11,190 bases of DNA from NCBI GenBank assembly GCA_030637655.1, contig DAOWGI010000006.1, positions 1 through 11,190 on the forward strand, in the 5' to 3' direction. Source of the stretch: a candidate division FCPU426 bacterium (GTDB taxonomy: Bacteria > Oederibacteriota > JAAXVQ01 > JAUVAV01). A program made the translations under genes and the position numbers. The first letter of the stretch is position 1. Every line of letters starts with the position of its first letter. Positions 1 to 7,430 of the stretch are shown here, piece after piece. Below the pieces are notes generated by a model, which worked only from the letters and a program-made list of their open reading frames with translations, was not told the origin of the DNA and ran no database searches.

Positions 1-1
1 G

Positions 2-64
2 GCAAAGCGCGAGCCGCAACTGTTTACGCACTGGCAGATGGGGATTATACCGACGGCTGGATGA
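2..64 (+). CDS. C-terminal end of inner intron-encoded reverse transcriptase/maturase (partial, 5' truncated)
   Basis: Frame from base 2 reads AKREPQLFTHWQMGIIPTAG*. The P-x-LF-x-HW ending is typical of endonuclease-less intron-encoded proteins, and the stop lies 3 nt before D5. Confidence 0.82.
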   Translation, partial: AKREPQLFTHWQMGIIPTAG

Positions 65-67
65 TGG

Positions 68-141
68 GAGCCGGATGAGCCGAGAGGTTCACGTCCGGTT
101 CTGAGAGAGCGCAGAGGTGAAATTCCTTTGCGCTACTCACC
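68..141 (+). ncRNA. Group II intron ribozyme domains V and VI (inner intron)
   Basis: D5 hairpin 68-101 with catalytic AGC 69-71 and AC bulge 91-92; D6 105-138 with unpaired branch A135. Confidence 0.93.
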
Positions 142-722
<581 letters not shown>

Positions 723-776
723 CAGCGACTTTATCAGTATAATTAGTCCTGGACCCCGGCTTTCGCCGGGGTGACG
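723..776. repeat. Right-hand part of a REP-like (CGTC/GTCA-tagged) palindromic repeat
   Basis: CTGGACCCCGGCTTTCGCCGGGGTGACG at 749-776 contains a perfect 8-bp hairpin ACCCCGGC-TTTC-GCCGGGGT. CAGCGACT (723-730) is nearly complementary to AGTCCTG (745-751). Architecture matches the element at 7317-7430. Confidence 0.7.
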
Positions 777-853: not shown

Positions 854-3637
854 ATGAAAAAATATTATTTACGTATATCTGTTTTTGTCATGCTTTTTAT
901 CCTGCTTTATGCATTATCCCAGGCCGGATGGGTGCAAATTGGCGGCAGCCTGAATATTGATTCAAATGAAACAGCAGTGTCTTCCTCAATTGACTCCTAC
1001 AATGCCACTCCCTATGTTGCCTGGCTGGAAGATAATGGTGGTCAAGAGGATATTTATGTGAAGTATTTTAACTCGACAAGTGGGGTGTGGGTTCCAGTCG
1101 GATCGAGTGTGGATACATCACTGTATGCAGTAGAGCCGGAAATTGCAATGTATAATGCAACTCCGTTTGTTGTGTTTCGAGAATCCGGCTTGGGGTATGT
1201 CAAATATTTTAATGGAAATACTTGGACACAACTAGGTAGTGAGTTCAATGTGGATTCTAATGAAACCGTTGTAAGGCCGCGGATGGTTTTATTGGGCAAT
1301 ACACCCTATGTAACTTGGCGCGAACAAGATCCTAATCACAATCAAATCCGAGTTAAGCATTATTCCGGCTCTTGGGTGTCTGATGGAGGGAGTTTAAATA
1401 GTGATGTGAATAGAGAAGGCGCTGGGACCTCCATTACACTTTACAATGGAACTCCATATGTTGCCATGATTGAGCGGTATCCGACAAATGTTCGTACTGT
1501 TAATGTTAAACGTTTAGAAGGGAGTAGCTGGGTGCAACTGGGTACAGGTTTAAATGTTGATCCAACTAAATCTGCTTTAATAACGAAACTAAATATCGAT
1601 TTTGCGAATAATACACCGTATGTGTGTTGGTATGAATCAGGAATCAGTGTCATGCAGATTTATGTAAAGCATTACAATGGCAGCACCTGGATACAGGATG
1701 GCGGGAGTCTTAATGTGGATACCAATCAAGGAGCTTCATATCCGCATATGGCTATTTCCGGAACAATACCATATGTTACCTGGGCAGAAGCCGGTCAAAT
1801 TTATGTCAAATATTACAATGGCAGTGATTGGAATCAATTGGGAAGCAGTTTGAATATTGATGTCAATCAGACAGCAAATAAACCGGGTATTGCCATGCTG
1901 AATGGCACTCCCTATGTTTGTTGGGAAGAAGACGGGAATATTTATGTCAAATACTATGATCCTTCCTTTGCTATTCAAACCTATGCCATCACACCTAACT
2001 ATGCCTGGTTGGATCAGATTGTATCTGTGACCATCCTGGCAGATCCGCTGGATACACCTATTTCAATCAAGCTCAGCCGGGCCGGCTTTTCAGATATTAT
2101 TGCCAATAATGTGAATGTGATTAGTTCAAGCAAAGTAACCTGTGATTTTAATCTATCCGGCTGTGCTCCGGGCGTTTATGACCTCCAGATTGGAACGACC
2201 AATGGGACAGGGCTTAAAGCTAAAGGGTTCACGGTGATGGAACAACTGTCTCCACCGATTGCCTGGGTAGTAACCGATATGGGTCAAGCAGGCGTTCCTG
2301 CTCCTGGTAATGATCCGTGGCGGGGAATAACTGTACTTGACACTGATCAGGATGGTTTACAGGAAGTCTATGCTGCCGGATTTATTAACCGGATAGGGAA
2401 GTATATGAAAACCGGATCAGCCTGGAATGTCTCAAGTCTTCCGGACGGAGCTTTGTCGGAGTATTATACGGATGTTGTAGCTGATGACAATGATTTGGAT
2501 GAGAAAGTAGAACTTTACGCTGCGACTTGGGATAATCACGTGTATCAGTATCACGCACCAGGATGGAGCAAGGATAATATGAGTAGTCTGGGTGATCTGC
2601 CGGACAAAGTTTACAGTCTGGCTTTGGGTGATGGGGACAATGATGATTATAAAGAGGTCTATGCAGCGTGTGGCGACGGGCATGTATATCAATTTAAAAA
2701 AGCAGGGAATTGGGCAAGGGTCGATGTGGGCAGCAGTACTGGAGCCATGTACGATGTTGCGGTCGGTGACGGCAACAATGATGGACAGCATGAAGTGTAT
2801 GCTGCCAATCAGGATAACAAGGTGTATCAATTTAAATATAATGGCAGCAGCTTTGTTAAGACTGAAGTGGGAGCCAGTGACGCGGATATAAGAGCAATTG
2901 CCGTAGGCGAGGGTGATCGGGATGGTAATAAAGAAGTGTATGCGGTGAATGCAGATGGCAAACTCTATCAATATTCTTGGTCAGGAATATTTTGGGATGT
3001 GGAGCTGGTAAATACCATACAGGCTTATGCTGTGGTAGTCGGTGATGCTGACAATAACGGATTGCAAGAACTCTACTGCGCCAGTGGTAATGGTCATGTA
3101 TACCAAATAATAAAAAGCGGCGGGGTGTGGCAGTCGCAGGATTTGGGTCAAGCTGCGAGTCCCTTATACAATCTTGAACTTGGAAACGGTGAAGCGAAGA
3201 ATAAATTTGCCGTGTATGTTATTGGTGAAGACAGTCATGTCTATCAATTCAAACCTATTAGCTTTGAACCTACGCCAACCACGACTACTACACCCACAAT
3301 AACACCGACACCTACTCCAAGACCCACAGCTTTAGCCGGGTTTGACGGGCGCATTATATCCAAAAAGCATATCTACGCTGCGCCCAATCCCATAAGAGGC
3401 CATATAGCCAATATCGTGATTTTTACTCAGCAAGCGGCGGAAGTCAGCGTGAAGCTGTTCACCACGAGCAATCAGGAAGTATTGTCATTCAGAAGGCATT
3501 ATGGAAGTGCCGGAAAGCATACGGAAAAGGTTAATATGAGCAATCTGGCCAATGGAGTATATTTGCTTTTGGTAAAAGCCGGAAACGCGGACGGCGTGGA
3601 AGAACGGGTGATTAAAAAAATCGCCTTGGTTAAATAG
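854..3637 (+). CDS. Large secreted protein (927 aa): 7-repeat beta-propeller, IPT/TIG-like Ig domain, 7-repeat FG-GAP/VCBS-like propeller, Pro/Thr linker, T9SS type A-like C-terminal domain
   Basis: AGGAGG at 841-846 precedes ATG 854; signal peptide MKKYYLR...LSQA. Seven W-x-Q-x-G-x-SLN...TPYV-x-W-x-E...IYVK repeats and seven GDGDNDG-x-x-EVYA-type repeats. Linker PTPTTTTTPTITPTPTP. C-terminus YAAPNP...LANGVYLLLVKA...KKIALVK. Confidence 0.9.
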   Translation: MKKYYLRISVFVMLFILLYALSQAGWVQIGGSLNIDSNETAVSSSIDSYNATPYVAWLEDNGGQEDIYVKYFNSTSGVWVPVGSSVDTSLYAVEPEIAMYNATPFVVFRESGLGYVKYFNGNTWTQLGSEFNVDSNETVVRPRMVLLGNTPYVTWREQDPNHNQIRVKHYSGSWVSDGGSLNSDVNREGAGTSITLYNGTPYVAMIERYPTNVRTVNVKRLEGSSWVQLGTGLNVDPTKSALITKLNIDFANNTPYVCWYESGISVMQIYVKHYNGSTWIQDGGSLNVDTNQGASYPHMAISGTIPYVTWAEAGQIYVKYYNGSDWNQLGSSLNIDVNQTANKPGIAMLNGTPYVCWEEDGNIYVKYYDPSFAIQTYAITPNYAWLDQIVSVTILADPLDTPISIKLSRAGFSDIIANNVNVISSSKVTCDFNLSGCAPGVYDLQIGTTNGTGLKAKGFTVMEQLSPPIAWVVTDMGQAGVPAPGNDPWRGITVLDTDQDGLQEVYAAGFINRIGKYMKTGSAWNVSSLPDGALSEYYTDVVADDNDLDEKVELYAATWDNHVYQYHAPGWSKDNMSSLGDLPDKVYSLALGDGDNDDYKEVYAACGDGHVYQFKKAGNWARVDVGSSTGAMYDVAVGDGNNDGQHEVYAANQDNKVYQFKYNGSSFVKTEVGASDADIRAIAVGEGDRDGNKEVYAVNADGKLYQYSWSGIFWDVELVNTIQAYAVVVGDADNNGLQELYCASGNGHVYQIIKSGGVWQSQDLGQAASPLYNLELGNGEAKNKFAVYVIGEDSHVYQFKPISFEPTPTTTTTPTITPTPTPRPTALAGFDGRIISKKHIYAAPNPIRGHIANIVIFTQQAAEVSVKLFTTSNQEVLSFRRHYGSAGKHTEKVNMSNLANGVYLLLVKAGNADGVEERVIKKIALVK

Positions 3638-4058: not shown

Positions 4059-5348
4059 GTGGAAAACAAAATATCTTTTTCAGGCAAGTTGGCGGTTTTT
4101 ATTATTTTGCTGGTAACCATAATAGTCGGTGTGCTTTCATTTCTTTTCTTCAAATATCTAATTTATTCCGTTAAAGACTCTTTCTTTGGAGTTTCTTCCG
4201 GAGTTGCCTACTATATTCTAAAAAGTCATGATATTTCCGGAGCTATTGCCAATAATACAATTAAGCGGATCGAGAAAAAAATATCGGCTGATCTTGAATT
4301 GCAGGAAGAAATTTTATATGTAGCGTTGATTAGTAGTGAGGGCGAAGTCATTATGGATACCACCGGCGGAGATGTGGAAAAAATCTACCGGGAAGACAAA
4401 AAACATGAATGGATTGTTAAAGGTGATAAAAGTCACTCGTTTTTTTTAAGGAAGGTAGAGCTTCGGAATAAAGTTTTTGATATTGCCAATATTAGTTTAC
4501 CCATTTACTACAAAGGGAAGGTGTGGGGCGTGGGGGTAGTGGGGATTGCCGCTACCTATTTTTTCAAGGAAGCCTTGCCGCGCGCCACGGTTTTTATCTT
4601 GATTTTATTCGTGGTTTTCCTTTCCAGCGCGGTAATCAGCCTGATTATTCTGGTGCATTATTTATTCAGGCCGGTCAGAAAACTTATTGAAGGCGCGGAA
4701 GGGATTTTTGAGCAAAATTTCGATACCGAGATTCCTGTTTACGGCAATGATGAAATCGGGCAATTAGCCATGACGTTTAATCGTCTGATCAGTTATTTAA
4801 AGGATTTTATTTCCCGCTTGCAAGAACAGTGCATGCTGGACCCTTTGACCAATTGTTACCGGGAAAGTTTTTTTCACCGTCAATTGAATATTGAGTTGGA
4901 GCGTTCGCAACGCTTTCAGGACCCCATATGCATAGGATGGTTTGAAATATATGACTTTTCCAGTCTGGTGGATAAGTACGGACAAATTATCGAGGAAAAA
5001 ACCATCAAAACATTTTCCGATATCCTTAAAAAGGCAACCCGCCATATTGATGTTTTGGCGCATATTAAAAATCATCGTTTTGGTCTGATTTTGCCCAAAA
5101 CCAATTACGATGGTGCTATGGTAGTTGTTGGGCGCCTGCGGGATTTGGCTGCCGGGATTTCTTTGACTGATGAGTTGGGAAAGCCCTTGGGACCATTGCA
5201 GTTTAGTTATGGTATGTCATGTTATGCTGCTGAAAAAAACGCTGCTAAACCCGAGCCTGAGACGGTTTTGAAACAGGCCGATGAAGCATTGCGCCAATCA
5301 CAAAGCAGCGGTCCCAATCAAGGTATGATTATGGATTTGAATTTTTGA
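4059..5348 (+). CDS. Membrane sensor protein: 2 TM helices, periplasmic domain, HAMP and degenerate GGDEF domain
   Basis: Purine-rich RBS AGGGAAGGA before GTG 4059. Two hydrophobic segments; HAMP (RPVRKL...NDEIGQLAMTFNRL). DPLT begins the GGDEF fold. The signature position reads KNHRF instead of GG(D/E)EF, while the I-site RHID is retained. Confidence 0.88.
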   Translation: MENKISFSGKLAVFIILLVTIIVGVLSFLFFKYLIYSVKDSFFGVSSGVAYYILKSHDISGAIANNTIKRIEKKISADLELQEEILYVALISSEGEVIMDTTGGDVEKIYREDKKHEWIVKGDKSHSFFLRKVELRNKVFDIANISLPIYYKGKVWGVGVVGIAATYFFKEALPRATVFILILFVVFLSSAVISLIILVHYLFRPVRKLIEGAEGIFEQNFDTEIPVYGNDEIGQLAMTFNRLISYLKDFISRLQEQCMLDPLTNCYRESFFHRQLNIELERSQRFQDPICIGWFEIYDFSSLVDKYGQIIEEKTIKTFSDILKKATRHIDVLAHIKNHRFGLILPKTNYDGAMVVVGRLRDLAAGISLTDELGKPLGPLQFSYGMSCYAAEKNAAKPEPETVLKQADEALRQSQSSGPNQGMIMDLNF

Positions 5349-5375: not shown

Positions 5376-7277
5376 ATGAAAAATATATTTTTTATTTTTG
5401 CAGCCGTTTTTTTTCTTTTAGCAATTGGCGGGAACGCCCAGGCGGATTGGCTTGGATTAATGGATAGTGGCACACCAATTGACCTGCCAAATGCCGATGC
5501 GGAGGCAATGGATATTGCTTTTGATCAAAATAATAACGGTATATGTGTTACCACCCAGCAGACCACCGCGTTTTATAATTTGCTAGTTAACCGCCAATCT
5601 TATGGTAGTGATACCTGGTCAAACAATGACACTCCGGTTGATATAATAACCGGGGTTATAGGAAGCACCAAATATCCGGATTTGGATATTCGCGCTTCAG
5701 GTATCGGAATGTGTGTCTACTCCAAGAGGAACAATACGACTGGTTACGAAAGAATATTTGGTGGTTTTTATAATAGCAATTTTACAATTGTAAATAATTC
5801 AATCCCCTTAGATCCTATAATTTTTTCTGAGTATGATGCAACTCAGCCCACAGTAGCAGTGGTGAATGATAATTTAATTATTCTTAACTATCTCAAATCA
5901 GATGCTGGTGGTGTTCGTGTTGTTGCCACCAAATGGGAGAACAATACTGCGACGTATTGGACCGCTTCAGGCTGGAACACCACAGGTTCTGCATTGGCAG
6001 TGGATGGCAAGGAAGGGGCGAATAGTTCGCGTCCCCATTTGGCAACCAGTGATCTGGGAGAGGTTTTTGGCGTGTTTGTAAAACAAGGAGCGCTCAATAA
6101 AATTTGTTCTTCAAAATACAGCAATGGCCAGTGGTATATCTGGAGTGTTGGAGGCTGGAATATTATGGGATCAACCATAAATTCCGAAGCTATAAGTTCC
6201 AATAACAGTAGTCATAATACCGCCAATCCCCGTTTGGCTCCGCTTTCCAACGGCCGAATGATATGCGTCTATGAATTAATTGAGAAAGCAACCGGGAACT
6301 CACGTATAAACTACTCGATTTACAATGGTCAACAATGGCTGCCCGGAGTAAACACCCAGCATGTCGATGTTGCCGGTAATACGGTGTTGGCTGCTTCTCC
6401 GGATATCGCGGTCAGTCCCCAAGGCAAAGTTATATGCGTCTATGCCAAGGGCAATACTGCCAATTCAACCCAACATGTTTACGCGGTGGAGTGGGACGGC
6501 GCCAACTGGCTGCCCATGAACAATAATCAATGGATTGATGCCCAGGGAAACTCGATTACCGTAATTACTCCCAAGATTGAATTTGATCAATTGGGTAATG
6601 CGATCTGTGTATTTCAGCAATATCTCGAATCAGAGGATAAAACGAGAACCTACGCGAATTATTTCCAGGGTCCGCCGTTTGTTTCCTCAATAACTCCGGA
6701 TAATGGCAGGAATAATGATTGGGTAACAATTACTGTAGCAGGATATAATTTTGCCGGCGGGAGCACAACAGCCCAGCGAATTTCCGCCCGGCTGACCAGA
6801 GCCGGCCAGCCGGCCATTTTTGGTGAGAACATTCAAGTGGCATCTCCAACCTTGAACTTTTTTACTGCCAGTCAATTTACCGTGGAATTCAATCTGGACG
6901 GCGCCCAGGTCGGGGATTGGGATTTGGAAGTTCGAAATCCTGACGGGCAGAATTTCACTCTCCCAAGTTTATTCGGCATTACCTGGCCGGATTTGAGTCA
7001 GGCAAATGTATATCCTAATCCCATCCGGCCGGGTAGCGGCGGGAGTCAAGCTGCTCGGAATTTGCGGTTTTTTGATTTGACCAGCGCAGTGACTATACGT
7101 ATTTTTACTTTAAAAGGGGAGTTAATACAAACCCTGACCAAAGATGACCGTCAGCTTTATTTGGATTGGGATTTGAGGAATCAAACCGGCCGTACAGTAG
7201 CGCCCGGAGTTTATTTGTACCGGATCGAATCTTCGGAAGGCAGTATAATAAAAGGTAAGTTTATGGTTATCCGTTAG
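5376..7277 (+). CDS. Secreted beta-propeller-like protein with IPT/TIG-like domain and FlgD-Ig/T9SS type A-like C-terminal domain
   Basis: GGAGG 5365-5369 is properly spaced for ATG 5376, not 5370. Signal peptide ends AQA. Repeats of P-x-I/L...G-x-x-ICVY...W; PPFVSSITP...VTITVAGYNF Ig module; C-terminus NVYPNP...IRIFTLKGELI...WDLRNQTGRTVAPGVYLYRI...GKFMVIR. Confidence 0.88.
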   Translation: MKNIFFIFAAVFFLLAIGGNAQADWLGLMDSGTPIDLPNADAEAMDIAFDQNNNGICVTTQQTTAFYNLLVNRQSYGSDTWSNNDTPVDIITGVIGSTKYPDLDIRASGIGMCVYSKRNNTTGYERIFGGFYNSNFTIVNNSIPLDPIIFSEYDATQPTVAVVNDNLIILNYLKSDAGGVRVVATKWENNTATYWTASGWNTTGSALAVDGKEGANSSRPHLATSDLGEVFGVFVKQGALNKICSSKYSNGQWYIWSVGGWNIMGSTINSEAISSNNSSHNTANPRLAPLSNGRMICVYELIEKATGNSRINYSIYNGQQWLPGVNTQHVDVAGNTVLAASPDIAVSPQGKVICVYAKGNTANSTQHVYAVEWDGANWLPMNNNQWIDAQGNSITVITPKIEFDQLGNAICVFQQYLESEDKTRTYANYFQGPPFVSSITPDNGRNNDWVTITVAGYNFAGGSTTAQRISARLTRAGQPAIFGENIQVASPTLNFFTASQFTVEFNLDGAQVGDWDLEVRNPDGQNFTLPSLFGITWPDLSQANVYPNPIRPGSGGSQAARNLRFFDLTSAVTIRIFTLKGELIQTLTKDDRQLYLDWDLRNQTGRTVAPGVYLYRIESSEGSIIKGKFMVIR

Positions 7278-7316: not shown

Positions 7317-7430
7317 GTCATACCCGAACGGTTTTATCCCCGATAAAAACATTCGGGGACGTATCCAGTGACTTTTAAGCCTTTGAAAATCAGAGCCGCT
7401 GGATTCCCGCTAAAACCATGCGGGAATGAC
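7317..7430. repeat. REP-like (GTCA...TGAC) doublet palindromic element
   Basis: Left arm GTCATACCCG...GTATCCAGTGACTTT and right arm AGAGCCGCTGGATTCCCGC-TAAAACCAT-GCGGGAATGAC. The arms are inverted relatives and each carries its own hairpin. Confidence 0.75.

Follow-up and report, generated by a model that had tools for sequence, protein, structure and literature searches.

A group II intron in a REP-like unit: evidence for a hairpin-following lineage without an endonuclease domain

Two nested introns at the left end of the window

We examined an 11,190-nucleotide stretch of DNA ('the window') from a candidate division FCPU426 bacterium, corresponding to one entire contig (G000:C74:1-11190) of a source assembly, G000, that comprises 120 contigs and 3.28 Mb at 45% G+C. 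The left end of the window holds the 3' parts of two group II introns, one nested in the other, and the outer of the two interrupts a unit of a repeat that we term repetitive extragenic palindromic (REP)-like. Rfam places the ends of these introns, each comprising domains V and VI (D5-D6), at 66-141 and 656-722. The inner intron's 3' end occupies positions 1..141 of the plus strand (RF00029, 56.8 bits for D5-D6), the contig beginning 141 nt before that intron's end. It is followed, also on the plus strand (142..638), by the 3' part of the outer intron's open reading frame (ORF), which encodes the end of the reverse transcriptase (RT) palm and a maturase (X) domain without an endonuclease domain, and terminates at a stop codon at 636-638. 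The window's ORF (117..638) carries RVT_1 positions 156-203 at 141-287 and the GIIM domain at 327-542, and its outer-intron part is collinear with the 446-amino-acid intact protein of a copy found in G008, a sister genome from the same family.

Downstream of the ORF on the same strand lie domain V of the outer intron (658..690; an AGC triad at 659-661, a 4-bp distal stem and the 5-nt loop GAAAU in the Rfam alignment) and then the linker, domain VI and the 3' end of the intron (691..722; ..CCUACCCCUAU). The RF00029 match (59.5 bits) stops at 722, placing the start of the 3' exon at C723; the terminus ..CTACCCCTAT is kept in 27 of the 34 relatives listed. The first three exon bases, CAG (723..725, plus strand), are the final three bases of a split left REP unit (consensus ..GGRRTCCAG), with C723 serving as intron-binding site 3 (IBS3). 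After the 23-nt spacer of a REP doublet (726..748, no strand assigned) comes the right REP unit (749..776, minus strand), recovered by the pattern scan as G000:C74:749-775:-. It appears as CTGGACCCCGGCTTTCGCCGGGGTGACG at 749-776, with the hairpin CTGGACCCCGGC-TTTC-GCCGGGGTGACG, and reads on the minus strand (C)GTCACCCCGGC-GAAA-GCCGGGGTC/CAG (here and below a slash marks the insertion point); it is itself an unoccupied target.

A second doublet, uninterrupted, is located at 7317-7430. Its left unit (7317..7369, plus strand) is degenerate, with a 23-nt loop and the end ..GTATC/CAG, and its right unit (7399..7430, minus strand; G000:C74:7399-7430:-) is an intact, perfect pattern unit reading GTCATTCCCGC-loop-GCGGGAATC/CAG. 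An initial annotation of the window had matched the 3' exon, CAGCGACTTT at 723-732, to CAGTGACTTT at 7366-7375, and the two are indeed identical at 9 of 10 positions. Taken alone that decamer match would be weak; it is the membership of the hairpin in a genome-wide repeat that carries the case.

The same annotation had noted a right repeat arm without its left counterpart, and had predicted a GTCA-tagged hairpin as the 5' exon. Both are accounted for by a second contig, C114, since the window is a whole contig and the left arm lies on C114, directly upstream of the first base of the outer intron. The only N-terminal RT half in the genome (RVT_1 positions 1-156) is on the minus strand of C114, and the only matching C-terminal half is at window positions 141-287. 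Read along its minus strand, C114 presents the 5' exon (..CGTCATTCCGGCatggtttaaGCCGGAATC), the outer intron (GTGCGCC, from C114:1393), the RT reading frame up to ..YADD, and then the opening 141 nt of the inner intron, at which point the contig ends. The 5' exon terminates GTCATTCCGGCatggtttaaGCCGGAATC/GTGCG, which is a GTCA-tagged hairpin, GTCATTCCGGC-loop-GCCGGAATC/, and fits the pattern GTCAYYCCGGC..GCCGGRRTC.

Without the inner intron, the rebuilt outer intron is 1833 nt long. A copy in G008, intact at 1834 nt and not interrupted by the inner intron, is collinear with, and 93.1% identical to, the rebuilt sequence. The two differ by three one-base indels, one of which (a one-base deletion) shifts the ORF's reading frame in the G000 copy. 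Because of this frameshift and the inner intron lodged in its ORF, the outer-intron copy of the window is probably no longer an autonomous element; the G008 copy looks intact.

RF01999 matches the 5' start (D1) of the inner intron on C114:64..1, and once this intron is removed the outer ORF reads YADD/FVIL (exons GATGATT and TCGTG, giving YADDFVIL), placing the insertion directly behind the YADD codons of the outer RT. The three tiers of nesting proposed earlier (repeat, intron, intron) are thus borne out by the two D5-D6 matches and the junctions on C114, and the two introns together make up a twintron. The inner intron is itself a repeat with two 5' ends (C114:141..1 and C113:141..1) and two 3' ends (C74 and C50:1-141), the body of which is unassembled; the window's first 141 nt open contig C50 identically. 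The second copy (C113/C50) likewise has a 5' exon ending ..FVGYADD, in a short stretch outside any RT gene, and the inner intron therefore appears to home to the coding sequence of RT active sites or to relics of it. Further group II intron ends, together with an RT containing internal stops, are present elsewhere in G000 (C30:28424-29327 on the minus strand, C75:17-92, C84:4008-4083 and C110:2321-2396), bringing the number of intron families in this genome to three or four at the least.

The REP-like family and the insertion site

A regular-expression scan of G000 recovered 88 units of the form CTGGA-hairpin-TGAC, and 19 strict inverted doublets in which GTCA-hairpin-TCCAG and CTGGA-hairpin-TGAC flank a spacer (13-33 nt in intact doublets, plus one of 98 nt). 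The strict pattern GTCAYYCCSG..CSGGRRTCCAG matched 57 unoccupied units in G000 and 64 in G008, and reversed-pattern controls matched none. The repeats fit the description of REPs as short, GC-rich palindromes of high copy number, found mostly in inverted pairs and tagged at one end. The GTCA tag is frequently preceded by C; the name of the CGTC-tagged palindromic family is taken from PMC3733652. We call the repeats REP-like because no Y1 transposase gene is flanked by units: no unit lies within 2.5 kb of any of the four Y1_Tnp matches in G000 (Y1 being the transposase type of REP-associated tyrosine transposase, or RAYT, genes).

In several doublets the left REP arm holds a second, complete REP hairpin within its loop (GTCATTCCGGCATTTC and GAATCCAG enclosing GTCACCCCGG..CCGGGGCG), as seen in G000 at C109:~4790-4871, C77:~5970-6059, C36:~92280-92372 and C30:~79950-80020. 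Such loop-nested hairpins suggest that REP units insert into each other. The scan also caught a separate repeat family, solely through its fit to the CTGGA..TGAC expression. It has at least seven copies (C20:20189-20238, C30:22133-22182, C35:49491-49540, C36:45560-45609, and copies on C98, C100 and C106) that have about 140 nt in common around CTGGACCTTGG..CCAAAGTGAC and are preceded by a conserved GC-rich stretch with a terminal T-run.

The outer intron splits one REP-like unit at TC/CAG, one base past its 8-bp stem, and every other copy we located does the same. All three 5' junctions in G000 (C114, C30 and a remnant on C94) and all four in G008 fall in REP units at TC/, and all three 3' exons in G000 and all four in G008 begin with CAG, giving seven of seven on each side and confirming the split that the initial annotation had postulated from one junction. 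Elsewhere in G000, C30:23899..23557 carries a deletion derivative that has lost the ORF (its first 305 nt are 97% identical, and its exons are GTCACCCCGGCatgattttgGCCGGGGTC/ and /CAGCGACTTTTAATTC.. followed by the right arm), C94:5660 has a 5' remnant of 18 nt (behind ..GTCCGGGGTC/, the right arm lying 54 nt further on) and C91 has a 46-nt 3' remnant followed by /CAG. The four G008 5' junctions come after ..TCGGGGATC/, ..GCCGGGGTC/ (twice) and ..GCCGGGATC/, and every one of them is preceded by a hairpin tagged GTCA or GTCT. The seven sites have outer flanks unrelated to one another, and one G008 copy has both of its junctions (GGGGATC/ and /CAG.., then the right arm) on a single contig.

A right arm is recognisable in only two of the four G008 3' exons, and the target is therefore a single REP unit rather than the doublet; the earlier proposal of an insertion into a palindromic repeat holds for the unit and fails for the pair. 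The occupied units vary in their stems (TTCCGGC, CCCCGGC and TCCCCGA) and in their loops (4 or 9 nt). G000 contains 4889 GRRTC/C sites, only 57 of which are inside pattern units, and the six bases paired by the intron (see below) therefore cannot explain the choice of site. A more lenient hairpin scan (at least 5 bp, loops up to 25 nt) flagged 563 of the 4889 GRRTCC sites and was set aside as too permissive.

Among the sequencing runs, half or most of the stretch is covered by four sets of DNA contigs, and those listed include no RNA set. The DNA contigs break at repeats (at 748 and at D5), one joint (412>712) fits the ORF-less derivative on C30, and no contig in the four sets crosses an empty or an occupied site.

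Exon recognition, hairpins and class across the wider family

A profile search with one genome per species returned 609 related stretches, of which the best 80 were taken, and 23 relatives of the closest group, with mapped 5' ends and from several phyla, were used for a ribozyme alignment. The five exon positions −1 to −5 find pairing partners in the consecutive alignment columns 192-196 in 23, 21, 21, 20 and 21 of the 23 sequences, respectively, defining exon-binding site 1 (EBS1) and its partner IBS1. These five consecutive covarying pairs make a helix intermediate in length between the 3-4 bp given for IIC and the 6 bp of IIA and IIB introns. Column 374, in the motif GGUG-N-UUGG, is Watson-Crick complementary to exon position +1 in 20 of 20 sequences, including three changed pairs (exon A or T), and represents EBS3; an EBS3-IBS3 pairing is a trait common to IIC and IIB. 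In an RNAalifold consensus of the 23 relatives, compensatory changes accompany 63 of the 81 pairs, and EBS1 falls within domain I in a terminal loop of 12 nt.

We sought EBS2 in two ways. Across the 23 aligned relatives, exon positions −6 to −20 were matched neither by a single column nor by several in succession, and in an alignment-free search the 5-mer complements to the same exon positions did not cluster, the best 10-column bin being occupied in 5 of the 23 sequences. In the present copy EBS1 is GAUUC (C114:1218-1214) and EBS3 is G (C114:1130), their partners being GAAUC/ and /C723. The IBS1 constitutes the last five bases of the 5' exon, four of which overlap the 3' strand of the REP stem, and the hairpin occupies the place where IBS2 would be expected. 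Of the elements that the initial annotation had named for comparison with the junction, EBS1 and EBS3 thus pair with it, and no EBS2 was found. Exon recognition is IIC-like, with IBS1 and IBS3, no EBS2, and a stem-loop replacing IBS2. A different, invariant GAUUC (at CUCGAUUCGG) was considered as EBS1 and ruled out, as it does not vary with the exons and the true EBS1 is 25 nt further on; folding domains I-III from one sequence gave no useful information (z −1.04).

These pairings bear on the doublet at 7317-7430, which had been put forward as an empty target. The suggestion stands for its right unit (7399-7430, minus strand), whose IBS1 GAATC fully matches EBS1 GAUUC and whose insertion point would lie between 7401 and 7402, and this unit is the best candidate empty target within the window. 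It does not extend to the degenerate left unit, where GTATC forms four of the five pairs with EBS1.

For the hairpins themselves, we compared 30 junctions (the 23 relatives and the seven copies of G000 and G008) with random positions from the same sequences. A perfect stem of at least 6 bp ending 0-6 nt before the site is present at 20 of the 30 junctions, as compared to 194 of 6000 random positions (3%), an enrichment in keeping with what had been anticipated for the flanks of homologous introns.

REP units are used elsewhere in the family, although not always in the same way. In four proteobacterial hosts the intron is located at the opposite end of a CGTC-type REP (..GGGAATGA/C; CTGGATTCCCGC-loop-GCGGGAATGA/C) and has the EBS1 UCAUUC; these genomes contain 11, 170, 6 and 2 copies of the hairpin unit used, with controls at 0. 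The REP end first proposed, TC/CAG, therefore describes G000 and G008 and not these related members. Family members with about 52% protein identity are also present on three replicons from Cupriavidus and Paraburkholderia in culture, inserted after a 5-bp hairpin (ACCGC-gtca-GCGGT) and TTAGT/, with the EBS1 ACUAA; the three Burkholderiaceae sites have about 23 nt of 5' exon in common. At one Acidobacteriota locus, from a metagenome-assembled genome (L033:~2975-3000), an unoccupied copy of the hairpin and IBS1 (GGACCACGGAGGGTCCTCCTA/C) is found about 60 nt downstream of a family member, and by its sequence the pair is a natural empty site beside an occupied one. Within the sister clade that also has the AGC triad, motif search and nhmmer did not map the 5' ends; only those of L065, which has no hairpin, and L069, which has a hairpin ending 14 nt upstream, were seen.

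The element has the conserved traits of group II introns (D5-D6, a GTGCG start, and a consensus fold with covariation). The intact G008 protein, encoded in domain IV, scores 407 bits on the RT/maturase model TIGR04416 (cut-off 300); about 30 residues follow the X domain, and no endonuclease domain was detected in the intron protein. The ribozyme outside the ORF amounts to 493 nt (1834 − 1341). Its domain V has a distal stem, GCGG-GAAAU-CCGC, of 4 bp with a 5-nt loop. An AGC triad is present in 26 members of a 29-row family clade, and for the other three rows the downstream scan yielded no D5 or a spurious match. A different clade has CGC at 12 of 18 loci, and in the CGC-type loci the corresponding distal part of D5 is ACC-GAAC-GGU. 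These CGC-type loci, returned by the same search, give strong matches to RF02001 and RF01998, have 5' exons consisting of a terminator stem and a T-run, and encode proteins 39-42% identical to that of the outer intron. No D1-D4 model in Rfam matched the outer intron (in L009), and the relative L026 reached RF02003 only below threshold (32.8 bits against a cut-off of 49).

Placed in a quick maximum-likelihood tree of 71 proteins that includes no class-labelled references, the RT falls outside the canonical CGC-type IIC clade: the 29 rows of the family form a clade with a Shimodaira-Hasegawa-like approximate likelihood ratio (SH-aLRT) support of 100, separate from the 18-row CGC-type clade (SH-aLRT 98). 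In the family's nearest neighbour clade a D5 was found in 7 of 16 rows, with an AGC triad, and six of these have a 5-nt loop. As defined in the relevant section of PMC1702495, IIC introns have a CGC D5, a distal stem of 3 bp (2 bp shorter than in IIA and IIB), an IBS1-EBS1 pairing of 3-4 bp and a stem-loop in place of IBS2; the same definition includes an epsilon-prime region having an 11-nt bulge and, in it, a conserved AGGAA. The present copy does contain AGGAA (AAAGGAAACG), but in a variable stretch that aligns poorly, and the relatives do not conserve the motif. Columns 154-166 hold a small, invariant hairpin (GAAC.CGAUUCGG), a candidate for the alpha-prime element that IIE/IIF ribozymes have, together with an additional bulge loop, at a stem-loop tip in D1d3. 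With an AGC triad and a 4-bp distal stem in place of the first two of those features, the intron is not canonical IIC, in a comparison made without class-labelled references. The IIB-like end noted by the initial annotation accordingly describes the D5 with its AGC triad, and does not extend to exon recognition, which is IIC-like.

Interpretation, rivals and related systems

We consider it probable that a group II intron without an endonuclease domain reverse-spliced into a REP unit, guided by EBS1 and EBS3 pairing together with the hairpin, and that it belongs to a widespread lineage distinct from canonical IIC. The outer intron lies in a single CGTC/GTCA-tagged unit, which it splits at TC/CAG. 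Judging from IIC introns, the stem-loop would supply the specificity that is missing without EBS2, and the ribonucleoprotein may recognise the folded stem, as suggested by IIC and other endonuclease-less introns (parts of PMC4424553). The hairpin probably forms in DNA that is single-stranded or transiently unwound at the replication fork. We propose, because the protein has no endonuclease domain, that a nascent strand could then prime cDNA synthesis. The intergenic REP units, numbering tens to hundreds, would act as harmless landing sites. On a more extensive version of this interpretation, for and against which we hold ourselves about evenly divided, the lineage is a widespread one with a ribozyme of the IIE/IIF kind that reads stem-loops instead of IBS2 and has been repeatedly retargeted, via EBS1, to either end of REP units.

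The alternative that survives best is that this is a plain class C (IIC) intron, which inserts behind any stem-loop and here happened upon a REP, such that only the kind of hairpin is new. Much of the biology fits that description: the short IBS1 with IBS3 and a hairpin rather than an EBS2-IBS2 pairing, the small ribozyme, the lack of an endonuclease domain and the IIC identity of the nearest solved RTs. In addition, IIC introns are described in PMC1702495, as far as the passage on their sites goes, as following terminators 'or other inverted repeats', and divergent class C ORFs are on record in part of PMC3552965. The D5, with its AGC triad, 4-bp distal stem and 5-nt loop, contradicts the IIC definition in the cited portion of PMC1702495; RF02001 and RF01998 match the CGC-type introns and not this family; the protein clades are separate; and IBS1, at 5 bp, reaches into the stem, in contrast to the IIC controls, which insert behind a T-run. 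We regard this alternative as unlikely.

Far less probable is ordinary sequence-specific retrohoming, in which the REP sequence itself (GTCA.., ..TCCAG) would serve as a long homing site and the hairpin's structure would be irrelevant. All seven 5' junctions of the two sister genomes do have REP consensus on either side, and the 5' exon stretch common to the three Burkholderiaceae sites points in the same direction. Across the family, however, the exons are wholly different beyond positions −1 to −5 and +1, and yet the stem recurs well above the random expectation; the REP units used differ in stem sequence and loop length; and the protein extends so little beyond its X domain. Finally, an artefact (segmental duplication of the intron with its flanks, wrong contig joins, or insertion of a REP beside an existing intron) is scarcely credible: the assembly is fragmented and its contigs do break at repeats, but the seven sites have unrelated outer flanks, one G008 copy has both junctions on a single contig, and the REP unit is cut internally with its last three bases beyond the intron, which insertion of a REP alongside would not give.

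Several observations weigh against our preferred interpretation of a hairpin-guided lineage distinct from canonical IIC. The protein tree is a quick, midpoint-rooted search without class-labelled references. The closest solved structures are IIC RTs (GsI-IIC at 241 bits and 7uim at 234, as compared to 161 for a IIB RT and 144 for LtrA), and the lineage could be filed as a divergent class C; PMC3552965, in the part bearing on this, places divergent class C ORFs outside the main node and the unclassified varieties g1-g4 near class C. At 10 of the 30 junctions there is no perfect 6-bp stem, several having 5-bp or imperfect stems and two or three having none that is obvious. The targets in any single genome have both their REP sequence and their structure in common, and recognition of the one is inseparable there from recognition of the other. 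The join from C114 to C74 crosses the unassembled inner intron, no contig spans it, and its basis is collinearity with the sister-genome copy rather than a spanning read; the join is well supported because that copy is collinear with the rebuilt intron. The mobility and splicing of the lineage are predicted from sequence.

The combination of traits sets the intron beside several known systems without matching any of them. Like class C (IIC) introns such as B.h.I1, which insert behind intrinsic terminators, it has no endonuclease domain, a small ribozyme, a short IBS1 with IBS3 and a stem-loop, and many dispersed intergenic sites (as described in portions of PMC1702495 and PMC4424553). Unlike them, it has a D5 of the AGC type (distal stem of 4 bp, 5-nt loop), a 5-bp IBS1 that overlaps the stem, an insertion site 1-5 nt past the stem without a T-run, and a protein in a separate clade, and it does not match the D1-D4 models that detect CGC-type introns. 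The IIC-attC introns, which enter integron attC sites at their folded bottom strand, in the account given in a section of PMC7923331 similarly use a repeated, structured recombination element as landing site and insert at or in the base of its stem; descriptions of the attC introns set the present case apart, in that the target is a REP unit and not attC, there is no TTGT/T consensus and the lineage is different. With IIE and IIF introns (intron-encoded protein classes E and F; g1-g4) it has in common the 5-nt D5 loop, the AGC triad, the size range and the absence of an endonuclease domain. The relevant part of PMC3753933 singles out the 5-nt D5 loop as an idiosyncrasy of IIE/IIF and gives their length as 450-700 nt without the ORF; IIE and IIF introns are described as site-specific homing elements with a clear EBS2-IBS2 pairing, in contrast to the present intron, which follows hairpins and has no detectable EBS2.

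REPs are already known as specific, harmless targets of insertion sequences (ISPpu9, ISPpu10, ISPsy8, ISPa11 and IS1397; from the sections of PMC1525189 that treat them), although those are DNA transposons. The same source, in a table entry, associates two of nine group II intron copies in Pseudomonas putida with REPs, and this was the only report on group II introns and REPs found in the literature searched. That association is weak and comes with no analysis of mechanism in the portion concerned, as compared to seven of seven copies at one phosphodiester bond here. A non-IIC intron next to a hairpin has a precedent in the class E fragments of Halorhodospira halochloris, which lie by an upstream attC-like hairpin and for which the authors speculate on a role of the structure (a passage of PMC7923331); in that passage the report concerns two 5'-truncated fragments, without EBS/IBS analysis. 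The 2021 paper in question (PMC7923331) states, in the text bearing on this point, that no role of upstream structures is reported for IIB introns, and reviews (PMC4424553 and PMC7306698, in their sections on homing) describe every lineage but class C as homing to specific sequences.

Hairpin-guided insertion has so far been treated as a hallmark of IIC, and the present family would be a second lineage with this behaviour and a different catalytic core. If the more extensive interpretation is correct, such insertion is not peculiar to IIC, and would either be ancestral to a larger group of endonuclease-less introns or have arisen on two occasions; REPs would then rank among the major natural reservoirs of landing sites for group II introns. 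With this finding, retroelements join the mobile elements that exploit REPs. Such a second lineage bears on how group II ribozymes recognise exons in folded DNA and on which mode of exon recognition is ancestral. Intact examples in culturable hosts exist on the Cupriavidus and Paraburkholderia plasmids, and the family points to compact introns whose specificity would consist of a hairpin and six bases.

Directly downstream of the intron-bearing repeat is a gene (854-3634) for a 927-amino-acid protein that has FG-GAP repeats and carries a type IX secretion sorting tail, and the next gene encodes a HAMP-GGDEF diguanylate cyclase (4059-5345). The 3' end of the contig (10900-11190) contains tandem 12-nt and 63-nt periodic repeats (TACGCCGACCGG..), situated within an ORF that runs off the window and probably encoding a Thr/Pro-rich linker.

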